This document shows, piece by piece, positions 46,454 through 48,461 of a stretch of 64,000 bases of DNA (position 1 is the first letter of the stretch; each line of letters begins with the position of its first letter). A program made the position numbers and the translations under genes. The stretch lies in IMG/VR virus record IMGVR_UViG_3300020463_000007, positions 32,001 through 96,000 of that record. One strand, given 5' to 3'. Source of the DNA: a virus. The notes beneath the pieces were generated by a model. It had not been told where the DNA came from and made no database searches. It saw only the letters and a program-made list of their open reading frames with translations.

Positions 46454-46813
46454 TTAAATAGCTGTTAACCTAATTAATGATTCTGTTGAATCGTCTTCAA
46501 CAGTCCACTTGTAACGATTGTTATCAAAGTCTACTGCTGTTCTGTTGAACATTTTTTTAAGTATTATTGCTCCACCACCTGGTGTAATACCTACTAAAGC
46601 ACATTCGCCTTCTGCATTAGGTGCAATTTCATTTACTAGTCTGCAAATTTTTGCAGAACCAGCGGCACTATCGCAATTAAATTTGTTAGTACCTCTTTGA
46701 GAAAGAATAAATCCTTCTCTAGATGCTGTACCATCATGGTATCTAATTGCTATAGTTGGTTGAGTATTGTCGCCTGTTGCGCCAAAAAATCTCTTGTTAA
46801 TTGGTCTTCCCAT
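46454..46813 (-). CDS. Small virion protein (possibly head decoration)
   Basis: Strong AAGGAG RBS, own late promoter and hairpin, next to capsid gene. Confidence 0.6.
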   Translation of the reverse strand: MGRPINKRFFGATGDNTQPTIAIRYHDGTASREGFILSQRGTNKFNCDSAAGSAKICRLVNEIAPNAEGECALVGITPGGGAIILKKMFNRTAVDFDNNRYKWTVEDDSTESLIRLTAI

Positions 46814-46893
46814 TTGTTTTCTCCTTTATACTTTTTACGTAATACGCAGTAGGTCAATCTGCATAAGTCCACATTAGTGGCCCGATTTATGAC
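46814..46893 (-). ncRNA. Candidate structured 5' leader RNA
   Basis: CCAC-UAAU-GUGG and UAUGCAG/CUGCGUA hairpins; CAUAA/UUAUG competes with the latter. Confidence 0.5.
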
Positions 46894-46934
46894 ACAAGTA
46901 TTTATCAGTTTACAAATAATTGTTTTGGAATAAT

Positions 46935-46967
46935 AAAAAAGAGAAAAGACGTCATAAGACGCCTTTT
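46935..46967 (-). terminator. Intrinsic terminator of the stand-alone ncRNA
   Basis: AAAAGGCGUC-UUAU-GACGUCUUUU followed by CUCUUUUUU. Confidence 0.75.
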
Positions 46968-46971
46968 TAAA

Positions 46972-47158
46972 ATAGTAAGCAAAATAGGTAGGACTTGGTT
47001 ACACCTACAAGCACGTACCGGAATACCATTCTAATACGTACAACCTAACCCCGCTAGTGACTGCGATGTGAACCTGCGGATTTCTCCTACAAGCCCTGGG
47101 TACCATCCCTGGTTAGTCAAGTTCGACCCTTCTGGTAAAGGCCTCTTCCTTGCACTAT
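46972..47158 (-). ncRNA. Stand-alone structured ncRNA (~190 nt), possibly manA-like
   Basis: Terminal stem, six or more internal helices with G-U pairs, GAAA tetraloop, two potential ACCA/UGGU pseudoknots; no ORF; family identity unverified. Confidence 0.75.
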
Positions 47159-47195
47159 AATTAAGAGTTAATTACTCTCCTAATGCTTAATTACT

Positions 47196-47223
47196 AATAT
47201 AACATCTTTATGTGTAAAGTCAA
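47196..47223 (-). promoter_or_regulatory. Sigma70-type promoter driving the ncRNA
   Basis: TTGACT-16 nt-TATATT with extended TG. Confidence 0.65.
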
Positions 47224-47244: not shown

Positions 47245-47272
47245 AAAAAAATAGGCCCCGAAGGGCCTATTT
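47245..47272 (-). terminator. Intrinsic terminator after major capsid gene
   Basis: AUAGGCCC-UUCG-GGGCCUAU plus U-tract. Confidence 0.9.
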
Positions 47273-47291: not shown

Positions 47292-48461
47292 TTAGCTGAA
47301 GCTTACGTTACCGTTAGTAATTGCAACGTTACCTAAGTAATCAGCCGCGTTACCAAGCGATGAAGCTGAGTTAGAAAGCTCAACGTAACCATATCTAGTC
47401 ATGAAAGACACAACTGGTTCGAATGAACTTGGATCTAACACTACACCACTACTCATCAATGGAATGTATGGGCAGTAGAATGCAGCAGCATCAGACTCAC
47501 TAGTACCTTTGTAGCCAACAAGTACAGCAGCATTATCAGCCGCATATGTGTTGACATACACTTTCATTGCACTATTTAAAGTTCCAACTAACTTAGTGTT
47601 TGTTGGTGCTTCAAAAGTACCTTCAGTAGTACGAGCGAACGCAGAAGTTGTAGCAGATTGTAGAATTGTTAACGCAAATGGGCTAACAACTGCAAAGTTA
47701 CCTGCACCTCTTCTTGTTCTTTGAGCGATCAAGTTTGATACTCTGTTAATTTGAACTGCAAGAGCAGCATGCTCATCACCAACAAAAGTAGCTGTACCAG
47801 ATACAGCAGCTTGGTCATAAGTTTCAGCGGCTGTTCCAGACAATGTAGTTAAGCTCTGAATGATCTCTTGATCAATTTCAGCGGTAATTTCTTGTGCTAA
47901 AGCAGCCATAATTTCTGCTTCTACATCAATACCGTGCATGGATTGTGCATCCTGTGCAGCTTCAAAAGTCCAGCGAGCTGATAGCTTTCTGGATTTTGCT
48001 TCTACAGTCTGTTTTAAGATCTGGATGGACATTTTACGTCCTGGCAAACCTTCTTTGGTTGCAGTTGCATCAGCAACACCAGACGGATCTGTACCCGTAC
48101 CTGAGTATGCAGTTGCAATTTTGAATGGGCTAAGAGCCTCTTCACCTGCTGTTGCGTTGTCATTGCTTTCAGCATAACGAACGCGAAGTGTGTGGATCTG
48201 ACCCACTGGTCCTGTCATCGGCTGTACGCCTACCAACTCGTTAGCGATAACTGTTGGCATCACACGTCTGATGACTGGAAGAATAACACGGTTAAGTGTT
48301 GCGATATTACCGGCGGAAGTTGCACCTGTGCCTGCTGCCTCTGACAAATACTTACGAGTGTTTTCGAGTGTACTTGCCATAACTGCTTTCTTGTTGCCAT
48401 TTAAGCCTTCAAGAAGAGCACCTTTGGTCTCCTGCCAGCGACTTTCTAGTAGTTCTGACAT
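47292..48461 (-). CDS. gp23: Major capsid protein
   Basis: VGVQPMTGPVGQI, VEAKSRKLSARWTFEAAQD...HGIDVE, AEID.EII, FYCPYIPL, SFMTRYG; LSE/A maturation site. Confidence 0.97.
   Translation of the reverse strand: MSELLESRWQETKGALLEGLNGNKKAVMASTLENTRKYLSEAAGTGATSAGNIATLNRVILPVIRRVMPTVIANELVGVQPMTGPVGQIHTLRVRYAESNDNATAGEEALSPFKIATAYSGTGTDPSGVADATATKEGLPGRKMSIQILKQTVEAKSRKLSARWTFEAAQDAQSMHGIDVEAEIMAALAQEITAEIDQEIIQSLTTLSGTAAETYDQAAVSGTATFVGDEHAALAVQINRVSNLIAQRTRRGAGNFAVVSPFALTILQSATTSAFARTTEGTFEAPTNTKLVGTLNSAMKVYVNTYAADNAAVLVGYKGTSESDAAAFYCPYIPLMSSGVVLDPSSFEPVVSFMTRYGYVELSNSASSLGNAADYLGNVAITNGNVSFS

Follow-up and report, generated by a model that had tools for sequence, protein, structure and literature searches.

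Organization of the locus

We analysed a 64-kb stretch of DNA (64,000 nt, hereafter the window) from a 155,565-bp viral genome record. All genes in this region are encoded on the minus strand, and the gene of the major capsid protein is separated from the next one, an ORF of 119 aa, by a gap of 478 nt. In the direction of transcription the gap holds a terminator, a promoter, about 210 nt of structured sequence, a second terminator, a GATAAATA box, a 70-nt leader and the ATG of the ORF, as follows.

47292..48461, minus strand: major capsid protein gene of the gp23 type, the upstream neighbour (Pfam PF07068 Gp23, E 4.5e-100)
47249..47272, minus strand: intrinsic terminator of the capsid gene (10-bp stem, UUCG loop, U7 tail; dG -15.9 kcal/mol)
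47196..47223, minus strand: putative sigma70-type promoter, TTGACT-16-TGnTATATT, with an extended -10 TG (47204-47203), at a position conserved in relatives
46936..47189, minus strand: predicted primary transcript of about 254 nt, its ends placed from the promoter and the terminator (+/-3 nt)
46935..46967, minus strand: intrinsic terminator of the RNA gene (stem 46967-46944, then CUCUUUUUU; U-tract to about 46935; dG -12.5)
46899..46906, minus strand: putative T4-type late promoter box GATAAATA of the 119-aa gene, 3' of the RNA terminator
46811..46882, minus strand: freshwater-2-like 5' leader of the 119-aa gene (RF02980, 42.4 bits, cut-off 49.9), ending in the ribosome site and the ATG
46454..46813, minus strand: 119-aa ORF, the downstream neighbour, outside the RNA unit (start ATG at 46813)

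An earlier note on this DNA had described a stand-alone RNA bounded by the capsid-gene terminator, by a promoter and by a terminator of its own, and these boundaries were all found on the minus strand (47272..47249, 47223..47196 and 46967..46944, respectively). For the 119-aa product no Pfam or PHROG family was found, and its look-alikes in the Atlas are only 'hypothetical'.

The box in front of the 119-aa gene belongs to a recurrent class. Over the whole 155,565-bp genome, NATAAATA (mostly GATAAATAC) is enriched upstream of ORFs, for example upstream of 44329, 46813 and 56316, and this enrichment marks the boxes as putative T4-type late promoters. In the 155-kb genome 38 copies of ATAAATA were counted; 25 of them are located no more than 100 nt upstream of an ORF, when about 1.6 would be expected, and the box behind the RNA terminator is among the 25. 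The capsid gene has no late promoter box within 100 nt of its start. The leader that follows the box resembles the freshwater-2 motif (RF02980), which scores above the cut-off in six relatives (65.8-77.2 bits). Freshwater-2 begins shortly after the late promoter box and extends to the ribosome site and start codon of the 119-aa gene, which is itself conserved; this suggests that the motif forms the 5' leader of a late phage mRNA.

The gp23-type capsid protein, a prohead protease and the T4-type late promoter boxes indicate that the carrier is T4-like, the type of phage known to carry the manA RNA discussed below. The closest cultured-phage matches of the capsid protein come from the jumbo T4-like Vibrio phage 2.275.O (71%) and Sinorhizobium phage Phosso (69.5%). 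As the completeness of the 155-kb record is put at about 44%, the genome of the source phage may reach about 350 kb. The source is thus probably an uncultured T4-like jumbo phage. No tRNA was found in the window, and the element there lies outside any tRNA cluster.

A divergent member of the manA family

The earlier note had pointed to a likeness between the structured sequence and the manA motif of marine phages and had named the Rfam covariance models as the check. When these were run, the manA model (RF01745) aligned over its whole length (1-192 of 192) at 47183..46978 on the minus strand, with 41.5 bits (E 3e-9, 701 nt searched), which is below the curated cut-off of 55.2 bits. No Rfam family was found at the curated thresholds in the 64-kb window, and the manA match was lost to the speed filters when the whole window was scanned. 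Relatives of the element come from IMG/VR and from Pelagibacter phage Mosig. An unannotated gap in Mosig is the only blastn match among cultured phages (70.6% identity), and the Mosig element scores 64 bits with RF01745, above the cut-off. Moreover, a 16-nt box, TAGTGCAAGGAAGAGG, common to the window and Mosig, is present in at least 120 IMG/VR contigs, and three of the 20 box loci tested pass the cut-off at the element (L013, 61.9 bits; L050, 61.1 bits; L003, 57.9 bits), with 72-80% identity to the window in the alignment described below (A1). The full-length match, together with this chain of homology to members above the cut-off, identifies the element as a divergent manA whose subfamily straddles the Rfam threshold, and the likeness pointed out in the note was therefore right. 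These results show that the stretch encodes a divergent manA-family RNA with the full nine-helix architecture. The family itself is already known, and the element of the window is a new divergent member of it. Most of this abundant subfamily escapes the Rfam cut-off, with 17 of the 20 tested loci scoring below it.

The canonical manA RNAs of cultured cyanophages score 170-184 bits. Only one copy is present in the 155,565-bp genome, as searched by nhmmer with the alignment profile, and a 15-mer scan of a collection of genome contigs returned chance matches only, none of 120 fitting the profile of the element. The manA of cyanophage S-CREM1, used as a blastn query against phages, found only itself, because members of the family are too diverged for a DNA search. 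With the manA motif of Weinberg et al. 2010 (RF01745; PMC2864571) the RNA of the window shares the nine-helix architecture, the occurrence in T4-like phages of aquatic bacteria and a start at the +1 of a sigma70-type promoter, which we find in P-SSM2, P-HM2, P-SSM4 and Mosig. It differs in its divergent sequence and in what comes next: where the motif abuts a start codon, the RNA of the window has a terminator of its own, with a separate late promoter behind it. This last difference matters because Rfam and Weinberg 2010 (PMC2864571) file manA as a probable cis-regulator and riboswitch candidate.

A structure maintained by compensatory changes

The RNA strand folds with an MFE z-score of -3.0, and none of 200 shuffles folds as well. 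We aligned 65 non-redundant elements from uncultured phages, 40-92% identical to the window (alignment A1), and scored a structure of 10 helices and 55 pairs that combines the RNAalifold consensus with hairpins that MAFFT had blurred. Across the 65 homologues 91.7% of the cells are paired, against 74.0 +/- 0.4% in shuffles, and compensatory changes on both sides occur at 40 of the 55 consensus pairs. The covariation score was 0.482, compared with 0.170 in shuffled alignments, none of 500 shuffles reaching it, and it did not exceed 0.133 when the partners were slid. The window sequence forms all 55 consensus pairs. The following parts are referred to below.

46978..47183, minus strand: manA-family RNA core (RF01745 model 1-192, covariation, 55 of 55 pairs)
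47183-47161, minus strand: 5' hairpin P1 of the manA core
47158-47155 with 46987-46984, minus strand: closing helix P2 of the manA core, AUAG with CUAU
47116-47111 with 47050-47045, minus strand: long-range helix P4 of the manA core, CUAACC with GGUUAG

The helices previously proposed stood up in part. Five of the seven are in the consensus, namely GGCCUUU/AAGGGUC, GGG/CCC, GGGCUUGU/GCAGGUUC with its GGA-GAAA-UCC tip, GUACGUA/UACGUGC and GUAGG/CCUAC, whereas the outer AUAGU-GCAA/UUGC-ACUAU helix and UGACU/AGUCA are paired in 61.0% of cells, against 60.3% in shuffles, and show no covariation. Five more helices had been missed: P1 (47183-47161), AUAG/CUAU, CAAG/CUUG, CUAACC/GGUUAG and the CGC/GCG hairpin. 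A coding function of this strand was also considered and rejected, as the ATG of its 33-aa ORF occurs in only two of the 65 relatives and the frames are not kept.

Such conservation bears on the idea that the phage no longer needs the RNA and that the element is a relic or passenger, carried along as a shuffled cassette of promoter and terminator. The modular contexts of the element and the terminator-plus-promoter junctions that flank it would fit this idea, but all 55 pairs are intact in the window, compensatory changes are widespread, and the promoter and terminator are both kept. We find the relic explanation scarcely credible.

A conserved promoter and an ordinary terminator

A loose sigma70 scan of the whole AT-rich genome gave 88 matches versus about 75 in shuffles. 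A promoter-like match is by itself at chance level, and the promoter claim therefore rests on conservation. In 83 distinct upstream sequences of relatives the TAT..T positions of the -10 box are invariant; TG precedes the hexamer in 70 of the 83, and 68 have a -35 box with at least five of six matches at a spacing of 16-17 nt. The spacer itself is almost without information. An A-rich tract upstream of the promoter is visible in the same alignment. In P-SSM2, P-HM2 and P-SSM4 the distance from the end of a consensus promoter to manA position 1 is 6-9 nt, and Mosig likewise has such a promoter. The presence of a promoter at the same position in the relatives and in canonical manA suggests that the RNA stands at the 5' end of its transcript throughout the family. 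The description of the RNA as early was not borne out, since in the P-HM2 transcriptome, published as cluster membership and not as expression levels, the two small ORF calls over manA fall in cluster 'Mid (C)'. We infer that the RNA is made before the late phase, which is a safer wording.

Of 84 distinct elements, 45 have an intrinsic terminator at a like offset downstream of the core, its U-tract starting 32-50 nt beyond it. Core and terminator show no overlap, the latter beginning 10-18 nt further on, and 30 different terminator hairpins keep the stem but not its sequence. No antiterminator signal was found in these 30 hairpins: their 5' arms scored 5.83 for complementarity to the ~100 nt before them, versus 6.04 for shuffled arms. 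The terminator thus does not compete with the presumed aptamer, by overlap or by alternative pairing, as that of a riboswitch would, and it looks like an ordinary gene end rather than a riboswitch platform.

These data are to be weighed against the view under which manA has been filed, namely that it is a cis-regulatory leader or riboswitch sensing a ligand or condition, with the terminator at 46967-46944 as the platform for control of the 119-aa gene and the structural genes beyond. Besides the label given by Rfam and Weinberg 2010, the arrangement in other phages speaks in favour of this view. Roughly half of the relatives, as well as the canonical cyanophage copies, have no terminator and a gene close behind; in Mosig, P-SSM2 and P-HM2, manA lacks a terminator and abuts the downstream gene, ending 16-44 nt before its start codon, so that a role in cis is conceivable for the family. 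Moreover, in about 17 distinct relatives (22 loci) the element is followed, on its own strand, by a member of the 119-aa gene family. In the subfamily that precedes a gp32-like gene, a terminator is found in none of 21 elements, and manA is there a leader, at least physically. In the window, however, the terminator (46967-46944) and the late promoter (46906-46899) both precede the ATG at 46813, so that the RNA lacks the 5'-UTR context on which the cis-regulatory label was based. Past the terminator, the 119-aa gene is preceded by a late-promoter box of the enriched class, the 30 terminator variants show neither overlap with the core nor excess complementarity, and the genes downstream of the element are in other phages unrelated, convergent or replaced by tRNAs, as described below. 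A cis-acting role in the window is for these reasons quite improbable. We know of no ligand of manA.

A unit that changes neighbours

Across the relatives the manA unit lies behind at least 10 different genes and before at least 10 others. The genes that follow it (gp32-like, 119-aa, rubrerythrin, cold-shock-like and nucleotidyltransferase-like genes, among others) are mutually unrelated. In one relative (L090) the next two genes past the element are convergent, and in another (L036) the element is found among five tRNAs. In S-CREM1, a manA of 96.6 bits takes up precisely the interval from tRNA-Leu to tRNA-Asn in an array of tRNAs and non-coding RNAs. With at least 10 unrelated families, convergent genes and tRNAs behind the element, there is no shared downstream pathway of the kind that riboswitches control. 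Nor does any partner protein gene accompany the element across these shuffled contexts.

A conserved promoter, an unregulated terminator, a separate late promoter for the next gene and shuffled neighbours together argue that manA is here a free-standing RNA gene and not a leader. Comparison thus supports the view that the manA of the window would form a transcription unit of its own. The earlier claim of a stand-alone RNA, not the leader of the gene starting at 46813, is supported by the conserved promoter, the 30-variant terminator, the late promoter of the next gene and the shuffled or convergent neighbours. In the literature that we searched, we found no statement that manA is often a self-contained gene.

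One could also imagine that the element acts on its own transcript or on the polymerase, either as a 5' stabiliser or as a put-like RNA that drives read-through of the terminator. The RNA is always at the 5' end of the transcript, and the put arrangement of HK022 resembles the order promoter, structured RNA, terminator, genes. Against this, the genes downstream are convergent in L090, the element also occurs inside tRNA arrays, and in the window the downstream genes are late and have their own promoter; furthermore, the size and nine-helix complexity of manA are far above those of known put RNAs. This function is highly improbable.

Complementary loops and possible self-association

Six loops of the predicted structure are relevant to the way in which the RNA may function.

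47133..47137, minus strand: loop L3, UACCA, complementary to the UGGUA of L8
47101..47106, minus strand: loop L5, AUGGUA; the L5-L7 pairing covaries in relatives
47081..47084, minus strand: loop L6, GAAA, a GNRA tetraloop (helix P6 supported by covariation)
47055..47062, minus strand: loop L7, AGUCACUA, four pairs with L5, one of them a wobble
47024..47028, minus strand: loop L8, UGGUA
46993..47003, minus strand: loop L9, UGUAACCAAGU, which contains ACCA

The complementary loops noticed earlier thus exist, with UACCA in L3, ACCA in L9 and UGGUA in both L5 and L8. Partners change together in relatives: L5/L7 is found as GUUGUA/GACA, GUUGCA/GGCA and GUUAUA/GAUA, with a moderate score of 0.232 against 0.114. 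From a by-eye reading of the hairpin listing, L3/L8 alternates between UACCA/UGGUA and UACCU/AGGUA (L040, L113), and L8/L9 appears as CAGA/UCUG, CGAGA/UCUCG and GCGA/UCGC. The same covariation is expected whether the contacts form within a molecule or between molecules.

A recent cryo-EM preprint (bioRxiv 10.64898/2026.07.01.735769) describes manA decamers and a 60-mer cage, with closed oligomers in five named manA RNAs. The assemblies are built from pentamers through kissing loops, L5-L7' with L8-L9' or L3-L8', plus a contact of the L6 GNRA loop with its receptor (10.64898/2026.07.01.735769). They were obtained in vitro, at high RNA and Mg, with other members of the family; the preprint still treats manA as a putative cis-regulator and leaves genomic context and cellular function aside (10.64898/2026.07.01.735769). 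Like the manA RNAs solved by cryo-EM, the RNA of the window has a GNRA L6 and complementary loop pairs that correspond to L3-L8', L5-L7' and L8-L9', and these pairs covary in relatives. It differs in that its assembly is a prediction, and the two helix numberings are tied only through the GNRA loop. Matched in this way, apparently the same loop pairs are contacts between molecules in the preprint, and the term pseudoknotted, used for the RNA in the earlier note, is probably wrong.

If the loop pairs were instead tertiary contacts within one molecule, manA could be a trans-acting RNA that works as a single molecule, for example as a decoy or sponge that captures a protein of the host or the phage, or as a ligand-sensing small RNA. 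The evidence for a free-standing unit would fit this explanation equally, as would the covariation, which has the same form for intra- and intermolecular contacts. On the other hand, the preprint finds closed oligomers in five named manA RNAs, and no gene for a partner protein travels with the element. We regard single-molecule action as unlikely.

A proposed free RNA acting in trans

Self-assembly needs a high concentration of RNA, and the strong promoter, the hairpins at the 5' and 3' ends and the independence from neighbouring genes are what would be expected of an RNA that reaches it; a self-associating RNA acting in trans is therefore the best reading of the locus. We consider it fairly probable that the manA RNA of the window is free, trans-acting and self-associating. 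In the scenario that we propose, host RNA polymerase with a sigma70-type factor would start at about 47189, the 5' hairpin P1 would form almost immediately, and the manA core would then fold. The unregulated intrinsic terminator would release an RNA of about 254 nt near 46936, and the 119-aa gene would be read from its own T4-type late promoter. The RNA would be abundant owing to its strong promoter and to the hairpin caps at both ends, and it would act in trans, presumably before the late phase of infection. Copies could associate via L3 UACCA with L8 UGGUA, via L5-L7, via the ACCA of L9 and via the GNRA loop L6. The outcome may be pentamer-based closed particles, as in the preprint for other manA RNAs, and the particle might serve as a scaffold or sequester a host factor or small molecule. 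The more specific proposal, that the phage makes a closed particle of RNA only (a decamer or an icosahedral-like cage) as an RNA compartment or scaffold in host takeover, for instance to hold a host factor or a small molecule, is tentative, and we think it possible rather than probable.

Other ornate RNAs offer precedents. ROOL, GOLLD and raiA, solved by cryo-EM in 2024-2025, are free-standing, often found in phages or near tRNAs, and form homo-oligomeric cages or rings; they are two to four times the length of manA and share neither its sequence nor its fold. Phage T4 makes RNAs C and D, small stable non-coding RNAs from phage RNA genes in its tRNA cluster. The manA copies of S-CREM1 and L036 are similarly placed in tRNA arrays; no homology to RNAs C and D is expected, and the window copy lies outside a tRNA cluster.

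The manA motif has been an orphan 'riboswitch candidate' since 2010, and the RNA-only cages of 2026 were formed in vitro, without a link to biology. In the window and about half of the relatives, manA is a self-contained gene that has moved among unrelated neighbours or is set among tRNAs. From the conserved promoter, the unregulated terminator and the shifting neighbours of these self-contained copies we argue that the primary product of the family may be a free RNA produced at high levels, as self-assembly requires. If the particle reading is true, what has been called the 'manA riboswitch candidate' would be a gene for a structural RNA.

Other RNA elements near manA

In six relatives an aptamer of the glutamine riboswitch (RF01739, 43-58 bits) lies roughly 150-400 nt upstream of manA; it is absent from the window. 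The positions are as follows.

2812-2861 of L003: RF01739 aptamer
1573-1622 of L013: RF01739 aptamer
3043-3090 of L050: RF01739 aptamer
2831-2878 of L059: RF01739 aptamer
1828-1875 of L086: RF01739 aptamer
2623-2669 of L044: RF01739 aptamer

The aptamer of L003 is about 280 nt upstream of manA, with a small ORF between them. Where manA precedes a gp32-like gene, a permuted phage tmRNA of the alphaproteobacterial type is found within a few kb (L005, L017, L023, L033, L049, L055, L061, L075 and L080), which suggests SAR11-type hosts for this subgroup. Small 'hypothetical protein' CDS in GenBank overlie manA RNAs of 170-184 bits, at 750-924 of L244 (P-HM2, PHM2_011/012) and at 685-858 of L245 (P-SSM4, PSSM4_169.1), and are probably spurious gene calls. 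Finally, S-CREM1 carries wcaG, manA and abiF RNAs between tRNA genes in one array (L242, 946-1844); no protein gene occurs in 840-1864, so that wcaG may also be a free RNA there, not a leader.
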